Assembly: GCA_016931935.1 (NCBI GenBank) | Contig: JAFGDW010000300.1 | Location: 55,274-119,273 of the forward strand | Reading direction: 5' to 3' | Source of the DNA: Candidatus Zhuqueibacterota bacterium | GTDB taxonomy: Bacteria; Zhuqueibacterota; Zhuqueibacteria; Thermofontimicrobiales; Thiofontviventaceae | DNA: 64,000 bases | Shown here: positions 2,060-63,720 of the stretch, one piece after another | Numbering within the stretch: position 1 is the stretch's first letter | Layout: each line of letters starts with the position of its first letter | Position numbers and translations under genes: made by a program | The notes under the pieces: model-generated | Database searches by the model: none | What the model saw: the letters and a program-made list of their open reading frames with translations, nothing else | What the model was told of the DNA's origin: nothing

Positions 2060-2091
2060 GTGTGTCTCCTTTTCTTTATTATAGCAGTCGA

Positions 2092-13066: not shown

Positions 13067-13090
13067 AAATCAAATCAGATATATTTTCTG

Positions 13091-14212: not shown

Positions 14213-14280
14213 GTTACTTCTCCTTTTATGATGGTTAATTTGTTATCAAACGTGTAATATAATAGATATATCTAACTTAA

Positions 14281-15321: not shown

Positions 15322-15647
15322 GAATGAAACGATCTCCTGTTTTATCTTTTATATCCCGAAGCCGGTATCGACATTTTGATTGAAATATTAAATCATTAAA
15401 AATGAATTTTGTCCCAGTTTGTTTAAAACTGTTCGGAGAAAAACGTCTCAGATGCCTGGCACCAAGTCGTCTTTAGCTAACGCGTGAATTGCCAAGAAGC
15501 TTATTGTTTGTGTCGGGTGATTATTTTAGGGAAGGAGGAATCATTGCCAAGCAGGTCAAACCCTCATACGACAATCACCATACGTTTGCGAAATATTATC
15601 ATCAGAACTGGTTATGATGTTCAATTTCACCAGGGAATAAGCAGGCT

Positions 15648-35093: not shown

Positions 35094-35461
35094 TTATATT
35101 GCAATGATATTCCATTATGAATATTCCGGTAGAGAAAATTCATACCATATCCAGTTTCCCTATCCTCCCAACAAATCTCATATCCACCAATCGCCAAATA
35201 AGGCATTCCCAAATCGATAATAGTTTATAATTTTATCCAACATCTTCAGGTAATTCTTTCATCTATCTTCTGCCATACGGACGTTTCCTCCATTAATTAA
35301 AAAATCTTCATTTTGTTCAACAATTGTTATTTTTTCAATTCGAAAAACGATGAAGTATAAATGGAAGCATATCCGAATTACCAAATCAATGTCGGTTTCT
35401 GCAATTTTTTCTTGTGGGAAGCAGAACTGCTTATTTACTAATCAGAGGAGGCGCTACGATC

Positions 35462-38400: not shown

Positions 38401-40858
38401 ATACGGCGGTTCGGTAGCAGATATGGCCTACGATGAAGTACACGACATCGTTCTGGCAGCATTGAGCGCGCCGCAATCCGTATTTATTTCCGCTGACAGT
38501 GGTTTAACCTGGACGGCTGCATTCCCATATGATTCGTTGGAATTCTGGACCGGCCAGGAACGTCGCGGCTTTGGTGGCCGGGCTGACCAGGTACAAGCTT
38601 CCCTCGGATATTGTTATGCCAAAACCAGTCAGGAAGCTGGTACACTTACCGGTTCCCAGGTATCGTTTGATGGTATTAACTGGAAAACCCTGCTTGATCC
38701 ATACATGGTTGGCAATCTGTTAGGTACAACTTTTCCGGGACAAGCCAATGGTCAATATGCCATCGGCTCACTGTCAACGTATGGCCCGGTAGCGCTTGTA
38801 AGCGCGATGAATTTCGTATTTCGCACTACTGACGCCGGACAAACGTGGGATATTAGTGTCGTGCCAAATTCAACGGCATTTAATACAGATAAAACCATCA
38901 CGACAGTCGAATTATGTCGGGATGATCCGACGGGGCGCAGTTTTTATGTGGTGTTAACCGGTAATAACGGCTCATCCAATCCGGAATTCTATCGCACCCA
39001 TGATGGGGTTGATTTCAGTCGAATCTTTATCGTCTCCGGCGCTGATACAGTTCACAACGTTATGGGCATCACAACACATCCGTATGCCAGCGATACTTTA
39101 TGGGCAGCAGCTGTTGATGAAGGCAAGCCGACACTCGGCGGATTGTGGCGATCATACGACGCCGGAGCCAATTGGACAATGATTTACCCGGGCGGGAATC
39201 CCCATAATGCACCAATGGCAACAATTTATGAAGACATCAGCTATCCGGGACCAAATAATCTCCGAATTTTCATTGTCGGCGAAAACAAATATTCTGACGA
39301 TTTAGGCACCACCTGGGTAGAATTCAGTCCGCAAACTGATCCATATGTAGATCGTGGATCAAACGCCAGAGCGGGTATCGGTCATGTGACCAACACCGAT
39401 ATTTATTTTGCCATGGGTGACGGTGCGCCATCGCGCTCAACGACGGGTATTGATGGCTACTATCTGTTTGTGCCAACCGGACTTGAAGGCATAAATATCT
39501 GGGACATTGCCCAGGTACCTAACCAGGTTGATAAAGTCTATCTGGCAACAAGTGTCGGTATTGCCTATACATCCGAGTTTACGAATACCGCATTAACTTC
39601 CACGCAAAAATGGGCATCACCCTATGGCAATTATCCGATCAATCCGGCGCAAGGCGGTAATACCGGATTTACTGCGATTGAAATTGATCCGAACAATACG
39701 TTGCATGTTGTGGCAGCCAATGGCAATGCAATTTTTGTAACGATGAACGGCGGCTTTACCAATAACGATTGGGATGCCACCCAATATAGCGAAGTTAGCG
39801 GATTGGACGAATCCGAGTTTAAAGGACGTGGCGGCCAGGTCAGCCAGATTACATTTATCACCAGCGACACGTTGATCGCCTCTGTATTTTGTGAACATTC
39901 GCTTTATGGCGTGCTCATGCAAAGCACCGATGGTGGCTACACCTGGTCAACAATGCCACAAGCCGGTGAACATGCGTTCCGTACTGTTATTGCCGCGTGG
40001 AATAGTGCACAGGATTCGGTTGTGCTCTATGCCGGTGGAGGCCATGTTACAGAAGATGTGTTTACTCATGCCACCCTGATCGATTCGGGTGCAGTCTATC
40101 GTTCCGAAGATCGGGGCGCGACATGGTCACAAGTCTCCACGGCTCCACATGGTGTATTCAATCCCGCGCCGTATCCGTTGCCGATTAACAATATGATGGC
40201 AAAACCGGGCAGCCTGGATACGCTGTACATGGCGTGCGGTGAAAATTTGAGCAATGCCATTGTCCGAACGTTTGACGGTGGCGTCACGCTCGAATCGTTG
40301 AGCATGGCCGCAGTCGGCATGTTTGAGGGCGCGTTTGAAGCGGTGGCGATCAACAAGAATCATCCCGATAGCGTGTACTTTGCCGTTCGTCGTGATATTT
40401 TGGTGTACGATGCTGCTTCAAACACCACAGCCACAATGTTCCGCGGCTACCCGGGTGAATTGACCCACGCATTGTTATTTGATGAGTTGACAATGGGATC
40501 ATCATCCGGTTTCTACCAATTGACAGCGCCAACGAATACCGATCCCAGTGCGCTTGATGGTAAGAAAGCAACAATTCCGACACGAGTGGAACTGGCGCAG
40601 AACTATCCGAATCCGTTTAATCCATCTACCAGCATTATTTTCTCACTACCGCAGGACGGTAACGTGAAGCTGGAAGTATTCAACCTGATCGGCCAGCGAG
40701 TCGCCACGCTGCTTTCCGAACCACGGAAAGCCGGTGAACATCGCATCAGCTACCAGGCGGATGATCTGGCCAGCGGTATCTATTTCTATCGGCTACAGGT
40801 CACCTTTGCCAACGGACAGAAGCGAATTCTGTCGAAGAAGTTGATGGTGATCAAGTAG
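35462..40858 (+). CDS. Giant secreted protein: N-terminal Ig/cohesin-like domain, 5 tandem ~155-aa novel repeats with poly-Pro linkers, BNR/Asp-box-like beta-propeller region, and a T9SS type-A C-terminal sorting domain
   Basis: Start set at MQQYKK (signal peptide; AGGAGG RBS at ~35444). Repeats span aa 206-975 of the track ORF with a conserved F.F......PDS.F...FA.T.P.PADSQ.SRI core, ...LVHDG.DPF... and IEV.A..L.L. Followed by PPPPPPPPPPPTP. Then six or more SxDxGxTW Asp-box motifs (SADSGLTWT, TTDAGQTWD, SYDAGANWT, SDDLGTTWV, STDGGYTWS, SEDRGATWS). C-terminus QNYPNPFNPSTSIIFSLPQDGNVKLEVFNLIGQRVATL...SGIYFYRL matches the Por-secretion CTD signature. Confidence 0.8.
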   Translation: MQQYKKLFIITLVLLSTIFSMQIALVAQGQPPESPKGPMGIPFMLAFMPGDSAKIPVEFFESVPADSQVSGFAFTLVKNSSDLKFHGVDTAATALSHWTVDYTMSGDSIRVQANAPGGVYFTKPDGPPALLCAIRGMIYQGAAVGDSIGLQIRHVSIVKKGQTVALPDSMFGPSMIKLQTGDTPPQPGNTIAFTFLDTQSWPDSSFSIDFAVTEPVPADSQVSRIRGVMEAIPNEVMWSSSESMLSPQFSGWSLIVTPESGLVEFDLEAPNGTYLVHDGNDPFVIFSLGGNILSTSMPGTNIEVQADRLFLTIKGTELVTDPDKVHSGFIKIMGDEPPPPPPGNELSFSFGHSFSKPDSGFGLDFMITQPIPADSQLIRIHAKVVANPTEVIWTSNGQILAPELSNWALDIIPGDEFVEFELMSIDGSPLVHDGQDPFIVFNLTGVVKGYATPDHAIEVVATELELEVNNKVVTADPQIIMPGKIMLDDGENPPPPPDHGYLFSFNEAISDPGSYFNLMFALTSPVPPDSQLSRIRMVVQSMPPALNWAETGHSLQPIMSDWTLTVTPGPEATEFDLVAPPGVFLATDSSMSGLNLVLFSGEVAPDAPAQGMVDVQAKELFLTLNGVEKTIDPITVQPGKVLLGNGEEPPPGQQSLFAFFDTFSKPDSNFAMEFAITQPIPADSQLSRICAVVRAMPQELDWSPTGHMLAPGMESWSLNVTVGNDSMMFDIQAPTGQFITHDAMVPLVLATFVGGVRPSASVEQNIEVKAENLKLTIKGIEHEFDPGMIQPGKVRLNNNPDGPPPGGESLFIFFDTNAEPGTDFLLDFAVAMPVPADSEISRLQIGLKIEPNLLVWNADESKVAEELADWTLTSTAAGDSMEFDLQSTSGSFLVHDGFDPYRIATLAGSVQASAPQNAIIQLTATKIYVTMHGVVTSIPPTSIPPVKIMLGGHVGPPPPPPPPPPPTPISSGDGRMNLGLYGGSVADMAYDEVHDIVLAALSAPQSVFISADSGLTWTAAFPYDSLEFWTGQERRGFGGRADQVQASLGYCYAKTSQEAGTLTGSQVSFDGINWKTLLDPYMVGNLLGTTFPGQANGQYAIGSLSTYGPVALVSAMNFVFRTTDAGQTWDISVVPNSTAFNTDKTITTVELCRDDPTGRSFYVVLTGNNGSSNPEFYRTHDGVDFSRIFIVSGADTVHNVMGITTHPYASDTLWAAAVDEGKPTLGGLWRSYDAGANWTMIYPGGNPHNAPMATIYEDISYPGPNNLRIFIVGENKYSDDLGTTWVEFSPQTDPYVDRGSNARAGIGHVTNTDIYFAMGDGAPSRSTTGIDGYYLFVPTGLEGINIWDIAQVPNQVDKVYLATSVGIAYTSEFTNTALTSTQKWASPYGNYPINPAQGGNTGFTAIEIDPNNTLHVVAANGNAIFVTMNGGFTNNDWDATQYSEVSGLDESEFKGRGGQVSQITFITSDTLIASVFCEHSLYGVLMQSTDGGYTWSTMPQAGEHAFRTVIAAWNSAQDSVVLYAGGGHVTEDVFTHATLIDSGAVYRSEDRGATWSQVSTAPHGVFNPAPYPLPINNMMAKPGSLDTLYMACGENLSNAIVRTFDGGVTLESLSMAAVGMFEGAFEAVAINKNHPDSVYFAVRRDILVYDAASNTTATMFRGYPGELTHALLFDELTMGSSSGFYQLTAPTNTDPSALDGKKATIPTRVELAQNYPNPFNPSTSIIFSLPQDGNVKLEVFNLIGQRVATLLSEPRKAGEHRISYQADDLASGIYFYRLQVTFANGQKRILSKKLMVIK
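35546..38340 (+). repeat. Tandem in-frame coding repeats (~465-480 bp unit, ~6 copies counting the diverged first domain) inside the giant CDS
   Basis: Periodic protein motif (PADSQ[VL]SRI) recurs every ~155 aa. Units are separated by Pro-rich linkers (PPPPPPGN, PPPPPDHG, EPPPGQQ, GPPPGGE, PPPPPPPPPPPTP). Diverged at ~30-40% aa identity, so ancient rather than recent duplications. Confidence 0.6.
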
Positions 40859-49841: not shown

Positions 49842-50762
49842 TTAATCGTTCCAGGAAAGTATTTTCATTATTTTTTTACTGCCGCCTACATCACCAAACA
49901 ATTCCAGGTACTCCGGATTATATTGAATCGACACATGATTTCCGGTACCGGAAATGTCACCATTGGCCAAAATGCCGCCTACAACAGAACTCTCTGATGG
50001 AGAACCTCCACCGGTAAAATCCATTTCATAAATAACTTCTGATGTCGGATTTAACATATAAAGTACGCCTTCTACACGTGCAGATCCATTAATAACTATA
50101 TCTTTTTCCACGATAAAAATGCCATAAATATGTGTTCCACCACTGACTTTCATATCGCCTTTAATGTAGGTAATATTGGGAATTCCGGCTGCAGAATCGG
50201 CGTAAAAACTGCCATTGGGATATCCATCAGGAGGTTTGACCAGATCATTTGGATCGCCAAAATAATGCCCCTGAGAATCTGCCTTTGTTGCGAGGCCAAG
50301 AATATCAATGTATGGCATTTCACTGGCATTTGTCACCATGAGTGTGCTGTCGACATTGCGATTTTCGTCGAGCGGGGTAACTTTGTCAACATCACCGGTA
50401 GCATAAATTGCTTGCAGACCGACTTCAGATGTCAATTTCAAATCAACAGATACCTGATTCGTATAACTAGCCACATGTCCGACAGAAGTAAGACGCACAA
50501 GCGAATCCATATCATTGATACTTACTTCAAACGAGCCCTCATTACTGGACGTTTCATCGTACCCATCCCGCCAGTTAAAATTGCGTGAGATTTTTGAGAG
50601 TGCAAGGTTCATTCCGGATGTTGCCATATTCAAAGCGCCAATCTGTCCATATTCTTCAACCATTTGTTCGTGCTGCATTGACATACGATTTTGCTGGGTC
50701 ATCAATCCGGATGTAATTGTAAAGCTGATCCCTGCTAAAATGAGGAGTATTGCTTTTCCCAT
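49842..50762 (-). CDS. PilX-like (type IV pilus minor-pilin/assembly, PilX_N-like) membrane-anchored protein, paralog A
   Basis: 306 aa. N-terminal anchor MGKAILLILAGISFTITSGLM, followed by ...ALNMATSGMNLALSKI (PilX_N-like A..AEaG..A helix). C-terminus VEGVLYMLNP...GGGSPSESSVVGGILANGDISGTGNHVSIQYNPEYLE is typical of PilX-like proteins. No prepilin-peptidase G/FTLIE motif. Confidence 0.4.
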   Translation of the reverse strand: MGKAILLILAGISFTITSGLMTQQNRMSMQHEQMVEEYGQIGALNMATSGMNLALSKISRNFNWRDGYDETSSNEGSFEVSINDMDSLVRLTSVGHVASYTNQVSVDLKLTSEVGLQAIYATGDVDKVTPLDENRNVDSTLMVTNASEMPYIDILGLATKADSQGHYFGDPNDLVKPPDGYPNGSFYADSAAGIPNITYIKGDMKVSGGTHIYGIFIVEKDIVINGSARVEGVLYMLNPTSEVIYEMDFTGGGSPSESSVVGGILANGDISGTGNHVSIQYNPEYLELFGDVGGSKKIMKILSWND

Positions 50763-51203: not shown

Positions 51204-52118
51204 TTAATCTTTCCAGGTAAGAATTTGCATAACTCTCTTGCTCTGCCCAATCGAGCCAAATAATTCCATGTATTCTGGCTTATATTGTACCGAAATATGA
51301 CTTCCAGTTCCGGATACATTGGCGTTTGCCAATACCCCACCAACCACAGAGCTCTCTTCAGGGGTACCACCACCTAATGCTGTCAAATCGTAATAAACTT
51401 TTGCGGTAGGATTAAGTAAATACAAAACTCCTTCGACACGAGCTGATCCGTAAAGGATAATATCCTTTTCAACAAGAAAAATTCCGTATATTCTACTTCC
51501 ACCCTGAACTTTCAGAGTACCTTTGATATATGTAACATTCGGAACGTTCCCGACCTTATAAAAACTCCAGTTTGGGTAGCCGTCGTAAGGTTTGATTATA
51601 GCAGACGGGTCTCCAAAAAATTGGTATTGACTTACTGATAATTGTATCAACGGGACCAGATTTAACAATGGCATGGCATCGGCATCCTGAATCAATAAGG
51701 TGCTATCGACATTTCGATGCTCATCCAAAGGTATGACGTTATCTACCGTCGCCGTCGAATAAATCGCATATCGTCCGGCTTCTGTGGTTAATCGTACATC
51801 CACCTGAACTTTATTGCTAGCACCTGATGAATGACCTGTCGACGTAATCCTTACGAGTGAATCCATGTCATTGACTTGCACATCAAATGACCCTGATGAA
51901 ACTGAAGTCTCGCTATAACCTTCCCGCCACGTATAATCACGTTTAATTTTAGAAAGCGCCAGATTCATCCCCGAAGTTGCCAAATTCTTTGCGGCTAATT
52001 CTTCGTATTGTTCAACAACAATTTCATTTTGTTCGCTGATCTGTTTTTGGTGATTTACCAATCTGGTTGAAAAAGTAAAACCAAGACCAGCAATTATCAT
52101 TAACATTGCTTTGCCCAT
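51204..52118 (-). CDS. PilX-like membrane-anchored protein, paralog B (~55% aa identity to paralog A)
   Basis: 304 aa, same architecture. Shares LATSGMNLALSKI..., SGSF.V.VNDMDSLVR.TS.GH, NVDSTL, NVTYIKG.LKV.GG..IYGIF.VEKDI...GSARVEGVLY.LNPT and ESSVVGG.LAN...SGTG.H.S.QY.PEY.ELFG with paralog A. Confidence 0.4.
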   Translation of the reverse strand: MGKAMLMIIAGLGFTFSTRLVNHQKQISEQNEIVVEQYEELAAKNLATSGMNLALSKIKRDYTWREGYSETSVSSGSFDVQVNDMDSLVRITSTGHSSGASNKVQVDVRLTTEAGRYAIYSTATVDNVIPLDEHRNVDSTLLIQDADAMPLLNLVPLIQLSVSQYQFFGDPSAIIKPYDGYPNWSFYKVGNVPNVTYIKGTLKVQGGSRIYGIFLVEKDIILYGSARVEGVLYLLNPTAKVYYDLTALGGGTPEESSVVGGVLANANVSGTGSHISVQYKPEYMELFGSIGQSKRVMQILTWKD

Positions 52119-52399: not shown

Positions 52400-53071
52400 T
52401 TAGTTAACATTTGTATTCGTCAATGGTACGAAGACTGTATCATGCACCGACTTATAAATATAAATACAATCGCGGTAGACGGTATCGGTTTCCGCTTTAA
52501 TATATTCTACCATTTTATCCGGTAGTCGCGCTGCCTGGTCAGGTATTTCCATCAGGCGATTTTCATTATAACTCCACAACTCAAAAATCACCGTTGAGGT
52601 ATCCCGTTCAAACCGGATTTTAATAGGATAATCTTTGTAATTCTTGTTCAGGCCAGTAAGAATCGATCCGAAAATATTGTACGCCGGTCGATTATTTTCA
52701 TAATCTTCCAAAATACTAATATCTTTATTTTGAGCGGTGATTTGAAAGTTCGCAGTAAATTTCCACTGGTTCATTTTCGCCTGTGCCTTATCGCTGACAT
52801 ACTGAAGAAAATAAATTTGATCCGATGGATACAGCCGTACAATATCATTTTCCCCAAAACCATTCAGGCTGACGTCGATGATATCCATGCGCGTCACCAG
52901 CGTTTCGGGAATAAAAAATTCATCGAGAAAAAATTTGATAAGCTTACCGTCTTGAATCGTGACCAACGGTACACTGGTTTGATTGACAATTAATTCATCG
53001 CCGGCGTGAACCGAAATTGTTTGAATCAAGAATATAGTACTAATAAAAAAAAGTACGATCATTGATCGCAT
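52400..53071 (-). CDS. Hypothetical secreted protein (last gene of the exbBD-containing operon)
   Basis: Start set at MRSMIVLFFISTIFLIQTISVHA (signal peptide), 10 nt after the upstream gene's stop. The track ORF extends 43 codons further into the neighbouring gene. Confidence 0.45.
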   Translation of the reverse strand: MRSMIVLFFISTIFLIQTISVHAGDELIVNQTSVPLVTIQDGKLIKFFLDEFFIPETLVTRMDIIDVSLNGFGENDIVRLYPSDQIYFLQYVSDKAQAKMNQWKFTANFQITAQNKDISILEDYENNRPAYNIFGSILTGLNKNYKDYPIKIRFERDTSTVIFELWSYNENRLMEIPDQAARLPDKMVEYIKAETDTVYRDCIYIYKSVHDTVFVPLTNTNVN

Positions 53072-53081
53072 TTCGTGCTCC

Positions 53082-54119
53082 TTATCGCATGGTTTTCGTT
53101 TTTGCAGTTGTCCACCATGATAAAAATATTTTATAAAAATCTTCGGTGACTTCAGGGGTGGGTGTTTTTTGTTGGGAAATAAATGATGAAATCGTGCCAT
53201 CAGCAGCCCGTTTGATTGAGCCCAGCCGTAAGTAGTTGCTTTTCTCTTTCAATCCGCTATCGATGAGCAGCGTTAAATTATTTCGTTCGATTAAACAAAT
53301 TCGAATTTCCAAAATATTTATTTTGCACAGCAAAAACAACTCGTATACTTTTGAATTTATTTCAAACCGCGTATGTGACGTAAGATTTCCCGGCTCATAA
53401 TTTAAAAACCGTTTAAACACACTGCTAAATACCACGGGATTCGATTGCATCCACTGAATCAATTCGTGAATAATTGGCGATAAATCCTTTTCGTTTTCCT
53501 TAATGTCATCCGGGCGCAATTCAATTTTTATAATTTCCGCATCGGGGATTGCCTTGTCTACTTCCAATTTGTTAAATTGCGTTGGTGCAACAAACCGGAA
53601 TGCCTGCAAATCCAGCGGGGTGTCATCCGGCAAATCGACGATAATTTGTGGCACCTGTCCGGCTTCGGGAAACGGCACATCGTGCAGACTGGCGTATTCG
53701 GCCTGCTGCATCGAGACATTTACCTGATTCTTTGGCTGTTGATGCCGGGCGAACTGCATTTGCCGATCCACTCGCTCAGTCTGTGGAACAGCCAGCGCCT
53801 GGTATGTTTTACGGGGAAGGTCCAGCTTGCTGGTGATGTCCGCATCCAGCGATTCAATTGACGGGATAATAATTGCATTGTCGCGGTATCGCGTGATTTT
53901 GTCATCGGGCTGCGGTAATCGTGAATGGCCGGTTTTCTTTGGCGTTGTTTCTTCAATATGAAAAATTGTCCAGTCGATTTCTTTCTGTGGTGCACGAAAC
54001 AGATACTTCCCCGGAGATACCCGGATTCCGGCGAGTAACAAGTAGGTAAAAATCAACCCGATCATTAATATAAGATCGCAGATGCGTTTTTCTATTTTAA
54101 CACGATCACTAAATTTCAT
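53082..54119 (-). CDS. Membrane-anchored hypothetical protein in the TonB position of an exbB-exbD-exbD operon, with no recognisable TonB C-terminal domain
   Basis: 345 aa. N-terminal TM ICDLILMIGLIFTYLLLAGI and a modestly Pro/Gln-rich middle. Its start overlaps the exbD stop by 11 nt. Confidence 0.45.
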   Translation of the reverse strand: MKFSDRVKIEKRICDLILMIGLIFTYLLLAGIRVSPGKYLFRAPQKEIDWTIFHIEETTPKKTGHSRLPQPDDKITRYRDNAIIIPSIESLDADITSKLDLPRKTYQALAVPQTERVDRQMQFARHQQPKNQVNVSMQQAEYASLHDVPFPEAGQVPQIIVDLPDDTPLDLQAFRFVAPTQFNKLEVDKAIPDAEIIKIELRPDDIKENEKDLSPIIHELIQWMQSNPVVFSSVFKRFLNYEPGNLTSHTRFEINSKVYELFLLCKINILEIRICLIERNNLTLLIDSGLKEKSNYLRLGSIKRAADGTISSFISQQKTPTPEVTEDFYKIFLSWWTTAKTKTMR

Positions 54120-54510
54120 AATGAATGCTCTTGGGAATGCCGTTCATTTCACACAGGTCAATCAGATCGACGGTTGTTTGAATCATTGTATTTTCGTCCG
54201 GGTAGATTATCACCATCATATCCATGCCCTGCGCACGCCAATCGTCACGCACACGCTGGATCAATGCATCGACATCGGATATTTTGGTGATCAATGGCCA
54301 AAAGGTATCACCGCATGATAGCTGGAATTCGGTATCGCTATTAACGCGAATGGTTAATACCTGTCGTTTGACAATCGCCGGACTTTCGTTTCCACCGGTA
54401 GGAAGTTTAATTTGGGTTTTGACAGTAAAATCGGAAATACCGATAAAACCGAGTAATAATATCAACACAACATCAATTAACCGAATGATGAGACCACCTT
54501 TGCTGAACAT
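54109..54510 (-). CDS. exbD: ExbD/TolR biopolymer transport protein
   Basis: 133 aa. GGLIIRLIDVVLILLLGFIG TM plus an ExbD periplasmic domain. Confidence 0.8.
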   Translation of the reverse strand: MFSKGGLIIRLIDVVLILLLGFIGISDFTVKTQIKLPTGGNESPAIVKRQVLTIRVNSDTEFQLSCGDTFWPLITKISDVDALIQRVRDDWRAQGMDMMVIIYPDENTMIQTTVDLIDLCEMNGIPKSIHYEI

Positions 54511-54567: not shown

Positions 54568-54966
54568 TCATTTCCCTTTCCGAATCACATCAATGCCTTT
54601 CAGCAACTGCCGCTGATCACAAAGGTTTGCCAGTGCGATGGTGTATTTTATCGGCGTATCCCAATTCGCGCGAATTTGCACCCGTGGCCGTTTTTCAGAA
54701 TCTTCCAGGCCAGCGAGCTGTTTGTCTATATAGCCAACAAGTTCATCATGGGACGTGAGCGTTTGCGTTTCATTGTCCACAAGAAAATTCCCATCCCGAT
54801 TAATCCCGATAATTAAGGTTTCCCCGTTTGACGGATTGGTAAGTGGCGTGGCTTCACTCGTTGGCAGCTCAATTTGACTATGCCGACTGATTTCACTAAT
54901 GGAAATAAAACCAAATAACAGAATCAGCACCACATCAATCAGCCGAACGATTATTCCACCTTTTTG
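54568..54966 (-). CDS. exbD: ExbD/TolR biopolymer transport protein (second copy)
   Basis: Start at MQKGGIIVRLIDVVLILLFGFISI. Paralog of the downstream exbD. Confidence 0.8.
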   Translation of the reverse strand, partial: QKGGIIVRLIDVVLILLFGFISISEISRHSQIELPTSEATPLTNPSNGETLIIGINRDGNFLVDNETQTLTSHDELVGYIDKQLAGLEDSEKRPRVQIRANWDTPIKYTIALANLCDQRQLLKGIDVIRKGK

Positions 54967-54970
54967 CATG

Positions 54971-56473
54971 CTATTGCCCCAATACTTCAAATTCTATTTT
55001 GGAACGACGCAAGCCCTTGGCGGTCACAACGATTGAATTGAATCCCGGCTCGGTATTCAGTGTGAAATAACTTTTGGCATATCCGTTTGAATCGGTTTGT
55101 GCAACATAACTATTGCGATTGCCCGGGAAGTACCCTTTCCCCATTTTGACTTTAAAAAGCACAGTTTCATTGGGAATCGGATTCTTGAAACAATCGAGTA
55201 ACTGGACAACAAACGGTTCACCAATTTCCCGACCTGCGGGTAAATTTTGATGATTCCCGGATACATATTTTAGCTCGGATGGATCTGCCGGACGCCCCAG
55301 TGCTTCAAACTGGACAAATTTACCGTTATTGTTCAGCCGGGCATTCACAATATTAGTACCGGCAACATTGCCCAGTGTCAGATATGTTTCCGCCAGCCCT
55401 GCTTCATCGGTCAAAATTTCTTCAACTTTATTGCCGTTTTTAAATGTACCGTTGCCATTTTCAATTTTGAAAGTAACCAGTTGATGGATCATACTGTTTC
55501 CGTCTTCATCGTGTACTTTTACCTGCAACGGTTTTTTAAGACGTGTATTCACGGGCGCCGCCTGATGATCTCCGGCCAGCGGTGCAATTGTCAGGTGCTT
55601 CGGCACGGATTCCGGTTCCGGCGTGACTTTTTTCTCGGAAGTAAATAAGTTCTCATCTTCAAAATCATTAATCTCTGCTGCTTCATGTTGCGGCGCTTGA
55701 TAGCGGAAACCTTGTTGCTGGGAGATGAGCAACCGCAATCTCAATTCTTCACCTTTAGTCAGAATCGTATCCATCTGTTTGCGAAATGCACCCTGCAATT
55801 GGGTTGAGAAAAAATTCAAAACAATACTGACGACCAATCCCATCAACGTGGTGACGAGCGCCAGTCCCATTCCATGGAGTATCACTTGATTGTCGAGATT
55901 TCCACGGAAAAATGTAACGAACATTCCCCAGACAGTTCCCAACAAACCGAGCGCCCCGGCGGTATCCGATAAGAACGATATTTTCGATTGGAATGTGCTG
56001 AATTTATCCTGCTGTAACTGAACATGATTGGTTATTTCGTAATGGGCATCGACCGCCGAATTTGTCGAGCGATACACATTCAGCATGTTCATGTATAGCT
56101 GATGGAGTAAATTATTCGGTGTATTTTGTACTGTCTGTTCGATATGCCGGAGCGATGCCGCTTTTGTATTCAATTCTAGAATATCTTTTGATCGGCGTTT
56201 GTCCATAAGTAAATCGGCATATCTGTAAAGCATTGTGGCTAAGCCAGCGACCAAAACCAGGATAATCACCCAGCGTAATCCACCAGCCAGTCGGGTGATT
56301 TCCCAAATCGATTTAAAATCGGATAACCGGGTTAAAGAGCCGGGATCGACCACTTGAGCAGCGGCAACATCGAGCGTCGAATCGATTGCTGCTGCCGCCG
56401 GGGCGTCCTGGCAGAATCCTTGTGAAGTCACAAGGATTATAAACATCATGAATAGAAATGCAACGCGCTGCAT
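54971..56473 (-). CDS. MotA/TolQ/ExbB proton-channel family protein with a ~230-aa C-terminal extension containing two Ig-like (Big/invasin-like) domains
   Basis: Start at MQRVAF (signal peptide). Three TMs with the ExbB signature AGALGLLGTVWGMFVTFF / GMGLALVTTLMGLVVSIVLNFF. C-terminus LQVKVHDEDGNSMIHQLVTFKIENGNGTF...EILTDEAGLAETYLTLGNVAGTNIV... and a second similar unit ...TVLFKVKMGKGYF...AQTDSNGYAKSYFTL...NSIVVTAKG resemble Big_1-type beta-sandwiches. Confidence 0.7.
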   Translation of the reverse strand: MQRVAFLFMMFIILVTSQGFCQDAPAAAAIDSTLDVAAAQVVDPGSLTRLSDFKSIWEITRLAGGLRWVIILVLVAGLATMLYRYADLLMDKRRSKDILELNTKAASLRHIEQTVQNTPNNLLHQLYMNMLNVYRSTNSAVDAHYEITNHVQLQQDKFSTFQSKISFLSDTAGALGLLGTVWGMFVTFFRGNLDNQVILHGMGLALVTTLMGLVVSIVLNFFSTQLQGAFRKQMDTILTKGEELRLRLLISQQQGFRYQAPQHEAAEINDFEDENLFTSEKKVTPEPESVPKHLTIAPLAGDHQAAPVNTRLKKPLQVKVHDEDGNSMIHQLVTFKIENGNGTFKNGNKVEEILTDEAGLAETYLTLGNVAGTNIVNARLNNNGKFVQFEALGRPADPSELKYVSGNHQNLPAGREIGEPFVVQLLDCFKNPIPNETVLFKVKMGKGYFPGNRNSYVAQTDSNGYAKSYFTLNTEPGFNSIVVTAKGLRRSKIEFEVLGQ

Positions 56474-56489
56474 GTCAATCTCCTTAATT

Positions 56490-58193
56490 TCATTGCCGTT
56501 TCGCATGTCGCACTGCAGGGAGTGACTGAGCCTCCTGCTGTAATTCCGGTGTCATGACCGCCGGCTCAGTCGAAAAGTCAATGCTCGTTCGTTGATGTCG
56601 AGTCACAATTACAAGCTGCCCTTTTGCGGAACGTTGAATATTTTTATTGTCATAAGTCCAGGTGAACTGATAAGAATATACGCCAGGGCGCAGCTTTTCC
56701 ATGATCGGTTTGTCCAGTTCCCATACAATCCGTGAAGGAATCCGGCCAATACCATCAAACCATTGGATGCCCAGCCCCTTGTCATCCTGGATTATCAAAT
56801 GCCACGATTTTGCCCGGCCACGTCGTCCTTTAATGCGGAATTCGATGCGGTCAGGGTTACATTTATAAGATTCGTTCGATTGATTGGTTAATTTCTGATC
56901 ATTTTTTCCCGGCATTGGTAATTTTTCACGGCGGATTCGGGCAGTCGGGATCGCCTCGAGCAACTCGTCCGCTACCTTTGTGGAGTCACGCATTAAAATC
57001 TCCGCGATGCCGTTCGCCGGATCGATCACATGCTGTCCAACCTTTTGTAATGATTGCTGATATGCCGCTGTCAAGATTTCTGTTGAATCCTTTGAACCAC
57101 CAATAAAAACGATATACCGTGTTTGCGATTCTGGAGCAACGGGTTTATTTATTTCAGTTTTTAATGCGGTGGTCAAATGCCGCCACTCACGTTTGTTCAA
57201 TTTTTCATCGACACGCTCTTCAGAACAAATTCGTTGAACCTCAATCTGCTTTACCGAAGCGTCTACCTGAAGCAGTGCATCTTCTACCGGTGGTGCGGCT
57301 TTATAATTGATGATTGGACGTTCATCACCAAAAGCAAATACCAGACCAACCTGATGCGAACCGATGCTGAAATCCTGAAATTCATTCGTCGGATAGTCGT
57401 ACGTGTAGAACATTTGCATACGATCGGCAACACTCAGTCGTCCCTCGAATTCAATACCATCGGACGTATAACCAAAACGTAATATGCCGCGATCGTTAAT
57501 TTTATAGTCAAGCATTCCGCCGAGCGTTTCCTGATCCAGCAGTGTGATACCAGCAGCGAAACTGCCACGCATATAGCTAATGCCAACATCGAGACGATAA
57601 GGCAGGCGCGCGTCACCGCCGACAAGCGATAAATTTGGCTCGGTTAAATTACTCATGCCGACACCGATCCGCAAATCATAGCGCGGCTGAAACAATAAAC
57701 CAACGCCTACACTATGCGCCAGCGATTGCACGCCATTGGCAAATAACGGATCGTTCGCATCACCCAACTGAAACTGATCCTGCTGATACGACTGATAGAA
57801 GATTTGCCACGATGCTCCCACACTTAGCGATTCCAGCAACCGATAGGCTGTCTGTGCCTGAATGTGTGACTGCTGGTACATCGCAATGCCAAATTGCTGC
57901 CCGTTGATACCAATCACCCACTCACGATCCAACAGGAACGGACTGGTAATATTGAAATAATTCGCCCGCAAGCCAAACTTGTCCTGCTCAAGAAAGCCAA
58001 CGTGCAGCATCTTAACACCCAGCGATACATGCCACGGCTGCAGTGCAATCACAGCCGGATTAATCAGCGAACTGCGGCAATCAAACACATCCGCCGGATT
58101 GCTGTCAATCCAATGTTGGGCTTTCAGCGGCCCGACTGCCACAAGTATGCTGATGGTGACAAGAATGAATGTTTTCGGACGATTTAATTTCAT
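56490..58193 (-). CDS. PorP/SprF-like T9SS outer-membrane protein with ~270-aa C-terminal extension
   Basis: 567 aa. Signal peptide MKLNRPKTFILVTISILVAVGPLKAQ. The N-terminal ~290 aa carry ...SSLINPAVIA (family NPAxxG/A motif) and an alternating beta-strand pattern. It lies directly downstream of a type-B-CTD cargo gene, which is the classic sprB-sprF arrangement. The C-terminal part (WHLIIQDDKGLGIQWFDG...PGVYSYQFTWTYDNKNIQRSAKGQLVIV) is beta-sandwich-like. Confidence 0.5.
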   Translation of the reverse strand: MKLNRPKTFILVTISILVAVGPLKAQHWIDSNPADVFDCRSSLINPAVIALQPWHVSLGVKMLHVGFLEQDKFGLRANYFNITSPFLLDREWVIGINGQQFGIAMYQQSHIQAQTAYRLLESLSVGASWQIFYQSYQQDQFQLGDANDPLFANGVQSLAHSVGVGLLFQPRYDLRIGVGMSNLTEPNLSLVGGDARLPYRLDVGISYMRGSFAAGITLLDQETLGGMLDYKINDRGILRFGYTSDGIEFEGRLSVADRMQMFYTYDYPTNEFQDFSIGSHQVGLVFAFGDERPIINYKAAPPVEDALLQVDASVKQIEVQRICSEERVDEKLNKREWRHLTTALKTEINKPVAPESQTRYIVFIGGSKDSTEILTAAYQQSLQKVGQHVIDPANGIAEILMRDSTKVADELLEAIPTARIRREKLPMPGKNDQKLTNQSNESYKCNPDRIEFRIKGRRGRAKSWHLIIQDDKGLGIQWFDGIGRIPSRIVWELDKPIMEKLRPGVYSYQFTWTYDNKNIQRSAKGQLVIVTRHQRTSIDFSTEPAVMTPELQQEAQSLPAVRHAKRQ

Positions 58194-58382: not shown

Positions 58383-61300
58383 TTACCGCGCCAATACCAC
58401 ATATCCCCGCGATACATGGCGATCTCCGTCCTGGAGTACGTACAAATACACGCCCGGTAAAACTAATTGTCGGTCGCGGTTCATTCCATCCCAGACAAAT
58501 GTTGATGCGGATGGGGTATGTAACGTAATGACCGGTCGCCCCTGCATATCAAATACTTTTAATGAAGGGTGACTTAGCTGGAACCGTGAAAAATCAAATT
58601 CCACTTCGTCGTTAAATCCATCATTATTCGGGGTGAACGGATTGCTGCTAAGCCGCAATTCACCTTCGTTGACACGGATATAGATATCCACGACATTGTT
58701 CGTCTCATCAGATTCGGTGATACGATTGTCCGGATCGACGGTAAAACGAATCAGGTGTCTGCCAATTGTATCAAATTGCACGGCTGCATCCATCCTCTGT
58801 TCAAAAGACACTGGCAGATTATTCACTGTTTCCGCGTCGATGATTTCACCTTTGTGTTCAAACTTCATATCGAATGGCTGCTCCACGTCAACTTCGTTCG
58901 CGATCACCTGTCCGTGAACATTCACAGATGAATGAACAAGCAAAGTGGTGCTGTCCGCTGAAATCGACGCCACCAAATCGGGTAACGCTTCACGAATAAA
59001 AAAATACGATTGCCAATTTTGCAGACAATTTGCCGGTTCGCTGAGATCGCATGCATCAACGCGTACAGTCACTTTTTCTCCTGATGCAAAACCTGTATCC
59101 GGTGTGTATTCAATTATAAATTCATTCGGAGTACCGGAAATATCAGGTGTTACATCAATATTATTCACCTGCACCTGAATGCTCTCCTGCGATACGCCTG
59201 CAACATCATCCAATAATCGAAATAGTATCGTCGGTCGGTTCAGTACATTGGTTTCGCCTGGTGCAGGTTGCATATCGACGATGTAGGGCGCAATAGTATC
59301 AACACGCGTCCAAAAAATAAATTCAGCATCGCTTTTGTTCGGCGGCACGATCAAATCGGCTGCATTCGCTGAAATACGGATTTGCTGATTGTATGCAAAG
59401 CGATTTTCGGGCTTCCATTCAACCGTTGTGTATTTGGGTGTTCCAGCAATATTGGGTTGGACAATTTCATTATTCACTCGTAACTGAATCGAACCAGCGT
59501 CCACTCCACTTTGCGTGTCCGTAATTTCAAACTGAAGTGAACTGGTAACAGGAACTTCAACGGCAGAATCGCCGGGTGAAATAAATCGAATAACCGGCGG
59601 CTGCACATCTGTTTCGGGATAAAATACGTATTTTTCCGTCGGCATTATGTTAGGAGTATCCGCAAGGTCAGCAGCGTCAATTTCCACTGTTACGCTGTCG
59701 CCATAAGAAAATGGCGTCGCTGGTTTGTACATTAATTGATAATCATAAACAAAACCGTTAATCATCGGTCTGACTGACCGGCCATTGATGCGCATTTTAA
59801 TTGATTGTAGATCGACACCCGACTGCAAATCCGCCAGATGCACGGCGACGGAATCAGTAATCCGGACATTCGTTTGTCCGGGCGTCGGATGGTGGCCGTA
59901 AGTAAACGGCGCTTGTCTGTCACGTCGGTCAGTCAACTTGAACGTGTAGGTTGAATCCAACAAATTTGCCGGATGTGAAAGATCGCGTGCATGAATCCGA
60001 ACACGAATTTGCTGGCCATGCGCCTGATTGGGTGGCATGTGTGACGACACAAACCAAACATCCCCTTCGCGATGCATTTCCAACACCGATGCCATTGAAA
60101 CGTCGTTCACCACAATCCCAACCGCCGATGTATCGACGCCGGCGACAGCATCCGTTAATCGGAAGGCAATATGGGCGGATGGTAGCACGCCTGTATCTCC
60201 CGGTGCAGGCGTTAAATAGCTCAAAATCGGCGGCTGCTTGTCTTCTATGATTGAAAATGAATAATCATCGGGATTCATCTGATTGGGATGCCGGGCATAA
60301 TCCTGTGCGGTCAGCCGGACAGAGACAATTTGATTGTACTGAAATAGTGTATCCGGTTGCCAGCTTATCCGATACCCCTGACTGAGTTTCTGAAATGATG
60401 GCACGACACTCCCGCCATTCACGCGGAGATTGACGAAACTGGTGTCGACACCGCTCATATCGTCCTGAATAGTCATCGAAATGGCTGTATTTCTGGGCAC
60501 CTGCTCAGCCGACTTTGCCGGTTGGTGCGCCGATGTCCAGGGCGGAAGCGAATCCCGCAATGTATAAAACTGATACTTCAATTCAGATGCATTTCCCGGC
60601 TGGGCCCTATCCTTTGCGGTAATGCGGATATTGATAGTATCATTTTCCATAAATTGCTGTGCTGGGTGAAATGTCAGTGTGCTGCCATCCACAAGCAGCG
60701 GTTCTGCATTTTTGGCATCGACATACAAACGCACATCGGCAACACCCGTGCGATCATCCGTTACTTTGAAAGAAATATTCGTATTCAGTGGGACATTCGT
60801 TTGACCTGCTGTTGGCGATACCGGTGCTATCACCGGTCCCAATGTGTCCTGTGCAATAAAGAATCGATAGAAATAAGGTGGCTGAATCGCATTCGGCGGA
60901 TTTGATTTATCGGCTGCAGCTACTGTGACACTCACGGTATCATTATAGGCAAACGACAATTCGGGCATCAAAATCCGTGTATGCAACATATCGCCATCAA
61001 TTGTCGTTGGCACAAGCGGATTATTCTGCACGTGCACCTGTATCGTGTTCCAATCCACACCAGCGATTGTATCCGCCAGCATAAATTGAATGGCGAGCTG
61101 TTTCACATCATTGGTCGAATTTGCGAGTGGATAAACAGGCACAACCCGGGGGGGCGTCACATCACGTTGCAGGGAAAATTGATACGATTCATCCATAGCA
61201 TTTGGCGTGTATGCCATATCCTGTGCTGTTACACGAACAGTCACATGATTATTGAATAAAAACGGAGTATTCGGCTGCCAGGTGAGCGTAATTATTTTGT

Positions 61301-63224
61301 TCTCAGCGCCAATCTGCATTGCTGGCATCACCGGTGCGTTATTGACCCACATGTGAATCGAATTCACCTCGACGCCACGATAATCATCATGTACCTCGAC
61401 GATAATTGGTTTATCCAGGGGCGCATCCAATGCATCGGCTAATGGTTGCACAGGATTAAGGTAAGGCGCAACCGAATCCGGAAGCATTTTGCCGAGCCCA
61501 TAATACGTAATCAATGTCTTGGATTCACCTGCCTGCATAAACACCGGTTCCCACCACATGGCGACAGCGCTATCGAACGTAATTCTGCTGGTATCGTTAA
61601 GGGTGTAATCCCATGGTTGGCGGAAGATATCGCGCCAGCGCAAAATCGCGAAACGGTCGGGAACCGTCGCATCGTATTTTTTTAGCGTTCCCTGTGCGGA
61701 AAAAATCGTACGGGTTGGATCGCCCTCAATCGCCGTCCACCACTCGGGAATTGCTGCCCCAATAAACTCCTGCTCCATCTGGACAAAATCACCATCCGCA
61801 GTTTTGATGGGCGCACCATCATTTTCACCAAGCATGGTATCAAACAAAATCCGTAACCCAATAACTCTGCCAGCCCCGTTATTGGTAATTGTGTATCTGA
61901 GCTCAGCCGTATCTTCGATTCTATCCACCGACCACTCACTACGCGTCAGCGAAATTGTTTGATCAACACGTACATTCTTGTATGTCCAACTCCAGGTAAC
62001 GGCCGGATCGCCATTTCCCAGTTGAATAGCTGTCGGAATGCTTCGTTGACCGTTAGTCACCACAGCCTCACCCTGGTCCGATCCGAACACTGCCACTTCA
62101 TCTTCAACTTTGAGGGTTGTATATGATGTATGCGGCCAGGGATGGCCGAACAGCAACGGCTTGTTATCGTCCCAGAATGTATTTGGGAGACCTTCCAGCG
62201 TTTGCATGGAGAAATTTGTGCCCGGATATTTATCCGTGACCATCACCTCAATAAATTCATTTTGAATTTTTGTATAAGTCACCGGTGTCAATGAAAAATT
62301 GATATTGGGGATGGTATCACCTGAAGTCACGACAACCGGATATGGAATTTCGGCGGTATGATATTTTGTTGGGTCGACACTGAAAATATATATACGATAA
62401 TTTCCGGGAGCTAATCCTGCTGCACAGTATTCACCGGTTTTCCAGCTACTATTGGCTTCGGAACACCACTGATGCGTTTCCCAATCTTCGACAACCACCC
62501 AGGCAGATATAGGCGCAGCAGGCTGGCCATCGTCCAGTACAAGCCCTTTTATTGCCCCACCTTTAGCCAACTGAAAATCAATATCATCGACCGTGTCACC
62601 AACTGTGACCGTTACCGGATAGGCCATATCCCACGTCGGCGAATTTTTATAGTACGTGGTAATGTAACCGAGTCCCGGATTTCCGGCCAGGATAATATGG
62701 CGTCCCGCTGGCAATGCCGGACTGATATATTCTCCCTGTCGGTTATTCATCGCATAGCCACGATCGATTTTTTCCCGGGCATCATAAAAACCAACATTAA
62801 TCGCATCACGAACTATGTCACCGTTGGGCGTACGTATAATACCCCGGATAAAACCGCCCTGATCGAGATGGAAATCGATACCAGTGATAATACTTTCCGG
62901 ACTTATTTTGATGGTTACAGCATCCGCCGGATTCAGAACGTTATTATAGTACTCATCCACATAATCATCCACATTAACGACTCGAACAATATATTCGCCA
63001 GTCGCGATGGATTGAATACGGTAATGACCGGAGGCGTCTGTTCTGGCGTCATAGTCAAAATGCGTGCCGGCACTCTGCTTGGCGCGAACCACGACATCCG
63101 CTAACGTACGACCATCATAGCTGTATACTGTGCCTTCAATAGTGCCTGCGTGTGCAAATTCATATGAATATAGCATGGCCACGACACCCAAAAGCACACC
63201 GATTCGATGCAAGTGCATTTTCAT
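58383..63224 (-). CDS. SprB-like giant cell-surface adhesin with T9SS type-B C-terminal sorting domain
   Basis: Start at MKMHLHRIGVLLGVVAMLYSYEFAHA (signal peptide). N-terminus has three carboxypeptidase-regulatory-like domains (GTIEGTVYSYDGRTLADVVVRA...TDASGHYRI). Eight ~95-aa SbsA/Big_5-like Ig repeats follow, with consensus D..PP.I....P..G.TNV.....I.F...D..SGVD..SI...VN. C-terminus NPFTPNNDGFNDEVEFDF...VFDMQGRPVITL...WDGMNRDRQLVLPGVYLYVL matches the gliding-motility type-B CTD. Confidence 0.75.
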   Translation of the reverse strand: MKMHLHRIGVLLGVVAMLYSYEFAHAGTIEGTVYSYDGRTLADVVVRAKQSAGTHFDYDARTDASGHYRIQSIATGEYIVRVVNVDDYVDEYYNNVLNPADAVTIKISPESIITGIDFHLDQGGFIRGIIRTPNGDIVRDAINVGFYDAREKIDRGYAMNNRQGEYISPALPAGRHIILAGNPGLGYITTYYKNSPTWDMAYPVTVTVGDTVDDIDFQLAKGGAIKGLVLDDGQPAAPISAWVVVEDWETHQWCSEANSSWKTGEYCAAGLAPGNYRIYIFSVDPTKYHTAEIPYPVVVTSGDTIPNINFSLTPVTYTKIQNEFIEVMVTDKYPGTNFSMQTLEGLPNTFWDDNKPLLFGHPWPHTSYTTLKVEDEVAVFGSDQGEAVVTNGQRSIPTAIQLGNGDPAVTWSWTYKNVRVDQTISLTRSEWSVDRIEDTAELRYTITNNGAGRVIGLRILFDTMLGENDGAPIKTADGDFVQMEQEFIGAAIPEWWTAIEGDPTRTIFSAQGTLKKYDATVPDRFAILRWRDIFRQPWDYTLNDTSRITFDSAVAMWWEPVFMQAGESKTLITYYGLGKMLPDSVAPYLNPVQPLADALDAPLDKPIIVEVHDDYRGVEVNSIHMWVNNAPVMPAMQIGAENKIITLTWQPNTPFLFNNHVTVRVTAQDMAYTPNAMDESYQFSLQRDVTPPRVVPVYPLANSTNDVKQLAIQFMLADTIAGVDWNTIQVHVQNNPLVPTTIDGDMLHTRILMPELSFAYNDTVSVTVAAADKSNPPNAIQPPYFYRFFIAQDTLGPVIAPVSPTAGQTNVPLNTNISFKVTDDRTGVADVRLYVDAKNAEPLLVDGSTLTFHPAQQFMENDTINIRITAKDRAQPGNASELKYQFYTLRDSLPPWTSAHQPAKSAEQVPRNTAISMTIQDDMSGVDTSFVNLRVNGGSVVPSFQKLSQGYRISWQPDTLFQYNQIVSVRLTAQDYARHPNQMNPDDYSFSIIEDKQPPILSYLTPAPGDTGVLPSAHIAFRLTDAVAGVDTSAVGIVVNDVSMASVLEMHREGDVWFVSSHMPPNQAHGQQIRVRIHARDLSHPANLLDSTYTFKLTDRRDRQAPFTYGHHPTPGQTNVRITDSVAVHLADLQSGVDLQSIKMRINGRSVRPMINGFVYDYQLMYKPATPFSYGDSVTVEIDAADLADTPNIMPTEKYVFYPETDVQPPVIRFISPGDSAVEVPVTSSLQFEITDTQSGVDAGSIQLRVNNEIVQPNIAGTPKYTTVEWKPENRFAYNQQIRISANAADLIVPPNKSDAEFIFWTRVDTIAPYIVDMQPAPGETNVLNRPTILFRLLDDVAGVSQESIQVQVNNIDVTPDISGTPNEFIIEYTPDTGFASGEKVTVRVDACDLSEPANCLQNWQSYFFIREALPDLVASISADSTTLLVHSSVNVHGQVIANEVDVEQPFDMKFEHKGEIIDAETVNNLPVSFEQRMDAAVQFDTIGRHLIRFTVDPDNRITESDETNNVVDIYIRVNEGELRLSSNPFTPNNDGFNDEVEFDFSRFQLSHPSLKVFDMQGRPVITLHTPSASTFVWDGMNRDRQLVLPGVYLYVLQDGDRHVSRGYVVLAR

Positions 63225-63720
63225 GATGCTTTGGTGCAATAATCTTGTTTTGGATTTTTTAAAGATAAATAGGATGGACGAAATTATCCTATGTTCCCTT
63301 TCCACGGCTGCAAATATAGGATGGCTTCCTCCATTTGAACTGCTTTATCAACTGGAGGTTTGTAACAAAGATGATAGAACTTGCGACTACATTATAGCAA
63401 AAGGTTGGCTAAAATGCAAGTTTTTTTTACTAAACAGAGATAATTTTATCAATAAATATATTATCTTTATGGGATTATAATAAAATCAAATATATCATTT
63501 CAATAGATACAAAATGTTAACCCAATATTCTCAACCACTAATACGCATCAAAAAAATGTCACCATTCTATCAATATTGTAACTTTTCTTGAATTACCGGA
63601 TTGTAATTCATAAAAAACAATATAGCTATGAAAGATAATTTGTAATCGTTCACAGGGTTTCAGAATGGTACTCCAATTTTTGGTGCCCTACATACTGTCT
63701 TCAGGAAACAGTTGATCAGA

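Follow-up and report, generated by a model that had tools for sequence, protein, structure and literature searches.

Proton-driven 5:2 motors (MotAB, ExbBD, TolQR, GldLM, AglRQS and ZorAB) do work at an outer membrane that has no energy source of its own, and the target pulled by such a motor is set by its transducer. To our knowledge, energised outer-membrane adhesins in Type 9 secretion systems (T9SS) and gliding have so far been accounted for solely by GldLM as motor and GldK as track. SprF of Flavobacterium is driven via a disulfide that joins the GldK track to twin cysteines in the periplasmic tail of the protein (PMC12635249), and proteins whose C-terminal domain (CTD) is of type B are held at the cell surface by a cognate PorP-like protein (PMC9143113). 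Non-TonB force transducers of the von Willebrand factor A (vWA) type have been described that are encoded beside tolQ, two tolR genes and a tetratricopeptide repeat (TPR) gene (PMC12204202, Mol Biol Evol 2025). Here we describe protein A (345 aa) and protein B (223 aa), the products of two adjoining genes (locus tags JW960_23825 and JW960_23820, candidate division KSB1; both annotated as hypothetical) within 64,000 nucleotides of a Candidatus Zhuqueibacterota genome (contig JAFGDW010000300.1, positions 55,274 to 119,273; this whole stretch is referred to as the window). The two proteins are not orphans but members of a conserved module of six to eight genes present in at least four phyla, and on balance we read A as a putative motor-coupled force transducer that is TonB/TolA-like but belongs to a different family.

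A conserved gene module around proteins A and B

The distribution of the module was surveyed by a locus scan (one genome per GTDB species; 52 sequences sharing the pattern FYx[IV]FLSWW, members without this motif being missed), which gave 99 confirmed loci, 80 of them retained. Carriers belong to KSB1, Calditrichota (Caldithrix), Balneolales, Rhodothermales and Gemmatimonadota and include cultured Salinibacter, Rhodohalobacter and a Balneolaceae isolate; the names Cytophagia, Bacteroidetes or Deferribacteres on some metagenome-assembled genomes (MAGs) are unverified submitter labels. For synteny, a local hidden Markov model of each module protein was compared with all open reading frames (ORFs) of the 80 species-level loci, and counts are given among evaluable loci. 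The order ExbB-ExbD-ExbD-A-(TPR)-B was almost invariant. Directly upstream of A lay ExbD_2 in 64/73 loci, ExbD_1 in 1/73 and a PorP-like gene in 8/73, and both ExbB and ExbD were found upstream of A in 55/63. Directly downstream of A lay the TPR gene in 67/71 loci and, where it has been lost as in the window type, B itself (4/71); B was downstream of A in 57 of 58 loci. Where the flanks were ample, a PorP-like gene (31/38) and a cargo gene with a CHU_C domain (30/38) were usually nearby, and this pair was still linked to the module under a permuted order (ExbB...B, then cargo and PorP) in loci L007, L020, L031 and L038. Four loci with distant homologues of A and B read CHU_C cargo, a PorP-like protein of ~590 aa, ExbB, ExbD, ExbD, A, a TPR protein of ~510 aa and B. 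No description of the A family or of the gene cluster was found in full-text literature searches.

Copy number varied among carriers, with two or three loci each in six MAGs. Eight loci were motor-less (PorP-like-A-TPR-B), often in a MAG with a motor-bearing locus as well, a pattern that by analogy resembles that of multiple TonB paralogues served by one ExbBD. In three motor-less loci (L049 8768-10477, L058 2-1711 and L083 8579-10447) A carries an extra N-terminal extension of ~200 residues, presumably cytoplasmic and without a recognised family. In a KSB1 relative without the TPR gene (L004), two small ORFs of 43 and 75 aa (9512-9867) stand between A and B at the usual TPR position and may be remnants or miscalls. 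The seven loci with neither the PorP-like gene nor the cargo all come from Gemmatimonadota, in which the module takes the form ExbB(+Big_1)-ExbD-ExbD-A-TPR-B and is set amid unrelated genes.

The conserved core order of motor, transducer, TPR protein and periplasmic protein, which stands alone without PorP or cargo in Gemmatimonadota, would also suit an envelope-maintenance system of the Tol-Pal kind, with ExbB-ExbD-ExbD as TolQR, A as TolA, B as TolB and the TPR protein as CpoB; its role would then lie in outer-membrane stability or cell division, and the link to adhesins would be secondary. Agreeing with this are the window ExbDs, which score best on NCBIfam TolR models (far below cut-off), the outer-membrane biogenesis genes in the same window, and a conserved strand near the mature N-terminus of B that is placed like the TolA box of TolB (PMC12204202). 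We nevertheless consider this explanation unlikely: two or three paralogous loci in several MAGs, some of them motor-less, would be out of character for a housekeeping system; close linkage to PorP-like genes and CHU_C cargo (31/38 loci) withstands rearrangement; the module includes no Pal/OmpA-like or beta-propeller TolB-like gene; the TPR gene has been lost in the window-type clade; and the distribution is patchy, with no cultured member of a classical Bacteroidota class in the scan, which covered the pattern FYx[IV]FLSWW only.

In the window, the operon takes in the upstream PorP/SprF-like and adhesin genes and runs along the minus strand in the order CHU_C adhesin, PorP/SprF-like protein, ExbB, ExbD1, ExbD2, A (53082-54119) and B (52400-53071). 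The ATG of A (54119-54117) is 11 nt ahead of the end of the exbD2 TAG stop (54111-54109), so that A overlaps the exbD stop as a prior sequence-only reading of the window had stated. The ATG of B, at 53071, follows 10 nt past A, and a Shine-Dalgarno sequence AAGGAG (53083-53078) overlaps the TAA stop of A (53084-53082) and lies six bases before the ATG of B. From this spacing and the shared strand, co-transcription of A and B is plausible. Promoter and terminator scans of the window sequence gave counts equal to those of shuffles, and therefore no operon boundaries were obtained. A 7-bp hairpin followed by a T run (53054-53070, minus strand) falls on the start codon and first signal-peptide codons of B; such sites are no commoner than in shuffled sequence, and the hairpin may be a chance occurrence, though it could affect translation of B. 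A longer mechanical ORF of 266 aa from 53200 was rejected for B because all 31 homologues begin at MR or MK followed by a hydrophobic signal peptide, and B is accordingly read as 223 aa.

The motor genes encode an ExbB/TolQ/MotA-like proton-channel protein of 511 aa (54971-56506, minus strand; PF01618 E 1.4e-14, PF02369 E 9.7e-13) and two ExbD/TolR-like proteins, ExbD1 of 140 aa (54568-54990, minus strand; PF02472 E 1.7e-11) and ExbD2 of 133 aa (54109-54510, minus strand; PF02472 E 3.3e-12, above the Pfam cut-off). The two ExbDs are a heterologous pair (33% identical), and both combine the PF02472 domain with a transmembrane Asp (RLIDVVLILL). In the ExbB-like protein, a signal peptide and three membrane helices are followed by two Big_1 immunoglobulin-like (Ig-like) domains at the C-terminus, a fusion kept in KSB1, Calditrichota and Gemmatimonadota relatives. 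The Big_1 domains follow the third helix (54974-55552, minus strand; also in L085 6121-8478) and, by analogy with standard ExbB topology, would be cytoplasmic, an unusual site for this domain. A reading of the locus as a Zorya defence system was rejected, since the likeness of ExbB to ZorA (E 8e-5, 19 bits) is that of a generic MotA core; no other gene of the locus matched Zorya in PADLOC.

Beyond B there is a gap of 281 nt, followed by two tandem paralogues (49842-50762 and 51204-52118, minus strand; 304 and 306 aa, 58% identical) whose N-terminus has a hydrophobic segment and which belong to no family in Pfam, NCBIfam or PADLOC. They were rejected as module members, being found in none of the 80 related loci, and probably lie outside the module. 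Elsewhere in the window (121-16967, minus strand) are outer-membrane biogenesis genes for LpxA, an LpxC-FabZ fusion, LpxD, BamA and TamB, together with those for undecaprenyl-diphosphate synthase and a 3-deoxy-D-manno-octulosonic acid (Kdo) transferase.

Family and architecture of protein A

Neither A nor B matched Pfam, NCBIfam or PADLOC, and when all sequences in the PDB were searched by profile with A or B, only noise came back. A word-indexed search gave 9 relatives for A and 32 for B, and the additional names obtained with an A profile were all "hypothetical protein", as was every database copy seen of either protein, including the RefSeq entries of two cultured carriers, Salinibacter altiplanensis and Rhodohalobacter sp. 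8-1. An exhaustive HMMER profile search extended the A family to 250 cluster representatives (clusters defined at 50% identity) at E<1e-3, 211 of these at E<1e-10; nearly all are 300 to 370 aa long, the matched domain is always at the extreme C-terminus, and 121 members scanned against Pfam gave no meaningful match. With ~250 cluster representatives for A and 32 homologues for B, both can be taken as real genes.

The reading of A as a force transducer is supported by its architecture of anchor, disordered linker and confidently modelled globular head, which is the three-domain layout of TonB and TolA. In an AlphaFold2 (AF2) model built from a 9-sequence alignment, residues 3-31 form one hydrophobic helix (predicted local distance difference test [pLDDT] of ~84), consistent with the TonB-like N-terminal anchor proposed before. 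The predicted single membrane anchor comprises residues 13-32 (54024-54083, minus strand) and is preceded by mainly basic residues. Column counts over the 121 members define a helical face S14-x3-T18-x3-L22-x3-Y26-x2-L29. The anchors of TonB and TolA are marked by the SHLS motif (S-x3-H-x6-L-x3-S; PMC12204202); S-x3-H is found in a minority of A relatives (e.g., L024 and L083), and in the window protein the motif is missing while the anchor helix itself is present.

About 15 residues past the anchor is a motif (residues 44-60; 53940-53990, minus strand) that reads P44-QKE-I48-D-W-T-I-F-H54-IEETT-P60 in the window protein and typically EIDWTKFxP in the family (E47 in 73/121 members, [LI]48 in 97/121, P55 in 104/120 and P60 in 86/116). 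The D-box of TonB (QPISVTMVTPAD in E. coli) is a hydrophobic/polar strand, flanked by prolines, that is captured by the ExbD dimer (PMC10907165), and the proline-flanked IDWTIFH of the window matches the published hydrophobic/polar pattern exactly (PMC10907165). Judged from these residues, it appears to be a conserved motif at the D-box position and with D-box character, its identity as a D-box being unproven. It forms part of a predicted disordered linker (residues 33-194; 53538-54023, minus strand) with pLDDT <50 over residues 33-193 and variable columns. The Pro content of this linker ranges from 2 to 18% across the family. At ~10%, and without (EP)n or (KP)n runs, the window protein fits in part the statement of the sequence-only reading that a Pro-rich spacer is lacking, a statement that does not extend to those relatives in which the linker is Pro/Glu-rich, with Pro contents of 15 to 18% and, in two of them, TonB-like PEPEP runs such as PEPEQPEAEEPVPEEEP.

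The remainder of A (residues 195-345; 53085-53537, minus strand) is modelled as a C-terminal alpha/beta domain (AF2 pLDDT 80 to 90) made up of three short helices, a meander of six antiparallel strands and, at the end, a long helix with the nearly invariant F328-Y329-x-[IV]-F332-L-S-W335-W336. Conservation among the 121 members is at least 90% at W223, L285, D287, G300, F328, Y329, F332, W335 and W336. The absence of a TonB_C signature claimed earlier was borne out, as there is no Pfam or NCBIfam match; the last 90 residues were also checked for a cryptic TonB_C fold with the structure model, which has another topology, and a Foldseek comparison of the head with PDB libraries returned nothing below E 0.02. 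In other architectures, the head occurs as a tandem duplicate that ends a multi-pass membrane protein of 1330 aa (P0048) and as a fusion with a caspase domain (Peptidase_C14) in a protein of 493 aa (P0176).

Like that of TonB, the gene for A directly follows exbD, here after exbB-exbD-exbD, and A has a membrane anchor, a D-box-like strand and, in some members of the family, S-x3-H in the anchor. A could on these grounds be a true TonB that has diverged beyond sequence recognition and energises ordinary TonB-dependent transporters, with B an unrelated periplasmic protein. We regard this as very improbable. The head of A, with its three helices, six-stranded meander and long helix, is not the TonB C-terminal domain (PF03544/TIGR01352 fold) and gives no TonB_C signal, and the window protein is without the Ser/His anchor residues of TonB. 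A comparison by hhalign of the A family profile with E. coli TonB gave a probability of 0.8%. Among the loci that were read gene by gene, none showed a TonB-dependent receptor (the 80 loci were scanned only with module profiles). B, TPR and PorP-like genes co-occur almost invariably with A, and its constant partners are instead a TPR protein and a periplasmic protein of ~200 aa, usually accompanied by a PorP-like barrel and a CHU_C adhesin.

Protein B and the outer-membrane end of the module

Protein B was described in the sequence-only reading as a secreted protein of 223 aa without a recognisable family, and this description stands. Its signal peptide comprises residues 1-23 (53003-53071, minus strand; cleavage between VHA and GD), and neither a lipobox nor a T9SS sorting domain was found. 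B is the best-conserved member of the module, its 32 homologues being 42 to 78% identical, with an invariant core EFFIPETLV...NGFG...PS...AQ..MN.W.F.NFQI. Across phyla the mature protein starts with a conserved strand-like segment (V-x-Q-x-x-x-P-V-x-x-I-x-D), which reads VNQTSVPLVTI in the window protein. TolB binds TolA through an N-terminal TolA box (PMC12204202), and by analogy the segment in B may be taken to recall that box. The AF2 model of B was too poor for use, and hhalign found no similarity between the A and B families. In Gemmatimonadota, B is the N-terminal domain of a protein of 600 to 750 aa (L063 11652-13727, L071 5004-7241, L078 11902-13785 and L085 11782-13638), the rest of which consists of three to four repeats with EF-hand-like DxDxSGxID loops and paired cysteines.

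Rates of change were compared among module members with a mirror-tree test, in which distance matrices of nine proteins or domains from 39 complete loci were correlated after removal of the mean signal of the others. The top residual co-variation was that of the A head with B (partial r 0.52; raw r 0.85), all other pairs being at or below 0.41. Residual correlations of the A head were 0.30 with ExbB, 0.17 with the PorP-like C-terminus, 0.04 with TPR and -0.01 with the PorP barrel, while for the A N-terminal segment TPR (0.32) came first, ahead of the PorP-like C-terminus (0.24) and ExbD_1 (0.20). This ranking favours pairing of the A head with B, and we tentatively suggest that the two bind each other.

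At the outer-membrane end, the window encodes a PorP/SprF-like outer-membrane protein of 567 aa (56490-58193, minus strand; PF11751 35 bits, cut-off 22.3) beside a surface adhesin-like cargo of 1640 aa (58383-63305, minus strand). An alignment of 58 module PorP-like proteins divides them into a barrel (~1-295), a variable region and a conserved Ig-like domain of FlgD_ig type at the C-terminus (~445-545), identified as FlgD_ig by Pfam in the Salinibacter orthologue. No cysteine column exceeds 30% occupancy among the 58, and the twin-cysteine tail of SprF is thus missing. Because of this and of the extra Ig-like domain, these proteins look like adhesin anchors without the known coupling device and with another periplasmic appendage. 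The adhesin comprises a CarboxypepD_reg domain, Big_5 repeats (E 1.8e-29), CARDB and, at the C-terminus, a sorting domain of the CHU_C (T9SS type-B) kind (Pfam, 34.9 bits, cut-off 27). On TIGR04131 it scores 28.5 bits, under a cut-off of 35; the pairing of type-B cargo with an adjoining PorP/SprF anchor therefore holds by Pfam, and both NCBIfam models are under their stricter cut-offs. The other strand (35414-40858, plus) encodes a protein of 1814 aa in which Sortilin/BNR repeats are combined with a T9SS sorting domain of type A (Por_Secre_tail, 30 bits). The window thus holds proteins with type-A and type-B CTDs, and the organism therefore has a T9SS with both substrate types.

With CHU_C cargo and PorP-like genes adjacent and T9SS substrates of both CTD types in the organism, A and B might instead be accessory factors of Type 9 secretion, A as a membrane-anchored chaperone or assembly factor of the periplasm and B as a periplasmic shuttle, which together would aid export or insertion of the type-B-CTD adhesin and its PorP-like anchor, with ExbBD merely co-located. 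The occurrence of the A head in the caspase fusion and the tandem duplication, suggesting a general binding module, would suit such a role. This explanation is nonetheless improbable, as A follows exbD in 65/73 loci, often with overlapping or abutting codons, and has the anchor-linker-head layout typical of transducers; moreover, the module is kept in Gemmatimonadota without a CHU_C or PorP neighbour, and B neither carries a T9SS sorting domain nor resembles PorV, PorP or another shuttle.

Under the transducer reading, the N-terminal helix of A would dock on the ExbB pentamer, and both ExbDs would hold, with their periplasmic domains, the short strand found ~15 residues past the membrane (window protein, IDWTIFH). 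The flexible linker of ~160 residues would span the periplasm, allowing the 150-residue head (W223, D287, G300 and FYxIFLSWW) to bind the target of the system. Sec-exported B would be the most probable direct ligand of the head, possibly through its mature N-terminal strand in the manner of TolB and TolA. The assembly of A head, B and TPR protein would then act on the PorP-like/adhesin complex where present, and the force might, for example, move, tension, expose or release this complex. Among targets of the force the PorP-like/adhesin complex is the foremost candidate, because the module is genetically tied to PorP-like and CHU_C genes in KSB1, Calditrichota and Rhodothermota, and we put it forward with some reserve. 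Taken as a whole, a device of the FCB group (Bacteroidota with allied phyla) in which ExbB-ExbD1-ExbD2 pulls, via A and the adaptor B (with TPR), on a PorP-like barrel carrying a giant T9SS type-B adhesin is a possibility that we hold with considerable doubt.

Several points weigh against this proposal. All seven Gemmatimonadota loci (7/7) are without a PorP-like or CHU_C neighbour, and the adhesin link is therefore not universal. The AF2 model of A rests on a shallow alignment of 9 sequences. In place of the anchor Ser and His/Thr, the window protein and its closest relatives carry C14/L18, and the linker of the window protein is not Pro-rich as the TonB spacer is. The A family shows no enrichment of the strict D-box pattern (17/121, against 10.4 in shuffles), for which reason the claim made above is confined to a conserved motif at the D-box position. 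Since hhalign detects no similarity to TonB, the resemblance to it may be one of analogy rather than homology. The mirror-tree signals are weak, many pairs having passed the permutation test, so the ranking alone was used. Finally, gene structure, the lack of a known family, domain architecture, the non-TonB_C model, family size and synteny come from observation, whereas the membrane topology of A, its contacts with ExbB, ExbD, B and the PorP-like protein, and the use of force on the adhesin are inferences.

Comparison with known force-transducing systems

The head domain sets A apart from TonB, TolA and the vWA class alike, and the window protein is also distinguished by its lack of SHLS. A close likeness in layout is to the vWA transducers, in which a non-TonB globular head is likewise carried on an anchor helix and a linker that is disordered or Pro-rich (PMC12204202), and whose gene neighbours also agree with those of A. 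However, the A head is an all-antiparallel meander with helices rather than a vWA/Rossmann fold, and has no VWA match in Pfam. The phyla concerned here are KSB1, Calditrichota, Gemmatimonadota and Rhodothermota, and the module adds the constant partner B and the PorP-like/CHU_C pair. The module shares with TolA (TolQRA-TolB-Pal-CpoB) the motor, a transducer of three domains, a TPR protein in the cluster and a soluble partner in the periplasm whose N-terminal strand is conserved. It differs in that A has neither the TolA_III fold nor a long helical domain II and no tolB-pal neighbours, in the lack of Pal and a beta-propeller TolB, in the two heterologous ExbD/TolR genes, in the multiple copies per genome and in the link to a T9SS adhesin.

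A second comparison is with SprB-SprF and its partners GldLM and GldK, where, as here, the gene of a large type-B-CTD adhesin is found beside that of a PorP/SprF-family anchor (PMC12635249; PMC9143113) and an inner-membrane motor driven by protons presumably acts on the adhesin across the periplasm. Here, however, the motor is of the ExbB/ExbD type rather than GldL/GldM, and the PorP-like protein has, in place of the twin-cysteine tail, a C-terminal extension of 270 residues bearing the Ig-like domain. Coupling would thus use a TonB-like tether and not a disulfide to a lipoprotein track. The Agl-Glt machinery of Myxococcus (AglR/Q/S with TonB-like GltG/J) resembles the module in having one TolQ-like and two TolR-like proteins, and in joining TonB-like connectors of the periplasm with TPR proteins, barrels of the outer membrane and a surface adhesin in one envelope-spanning force chain. 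It differs in that GltG/J have TonB_C-like domains, the sequence relationship being at the motor alone, and the outer-membrane and adhesin parts of the module belong to the T9SS world.

These comparisons place A as a member of a wide, conserved and putative transducer family with an unrecognised head and a fixed, equally unrecognised partner, missing from Pfam, NCBIfam and the literature searched. Its near-constant linkage to PorP/SprF-like and type-B-CTD adhesin genes would tie Ton-like force transduction to T9SS and gliding. Cultured carriers make the idea testable, namely Salinibacter altiplanensis (A, WP_103028726.1 and WP_232798402.1; B, WP_157942298.1) and Rhodohalobacter sp. 8-1 (WP_340106290.1). 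If the proposal is true, KSB1, Calditrichota and Rhodothermota/Balneolales, with a variant form in Gemmatimonadota, would possess a device for adhesion or motility that exists alongside the GldLM/GldK track of Bacteroidota gliding and does not depend on it. What is new is the transducer family and its module, whereas the class to which they would belong, that of envelope machines driven by ExbBD or TolQR, is a known one.

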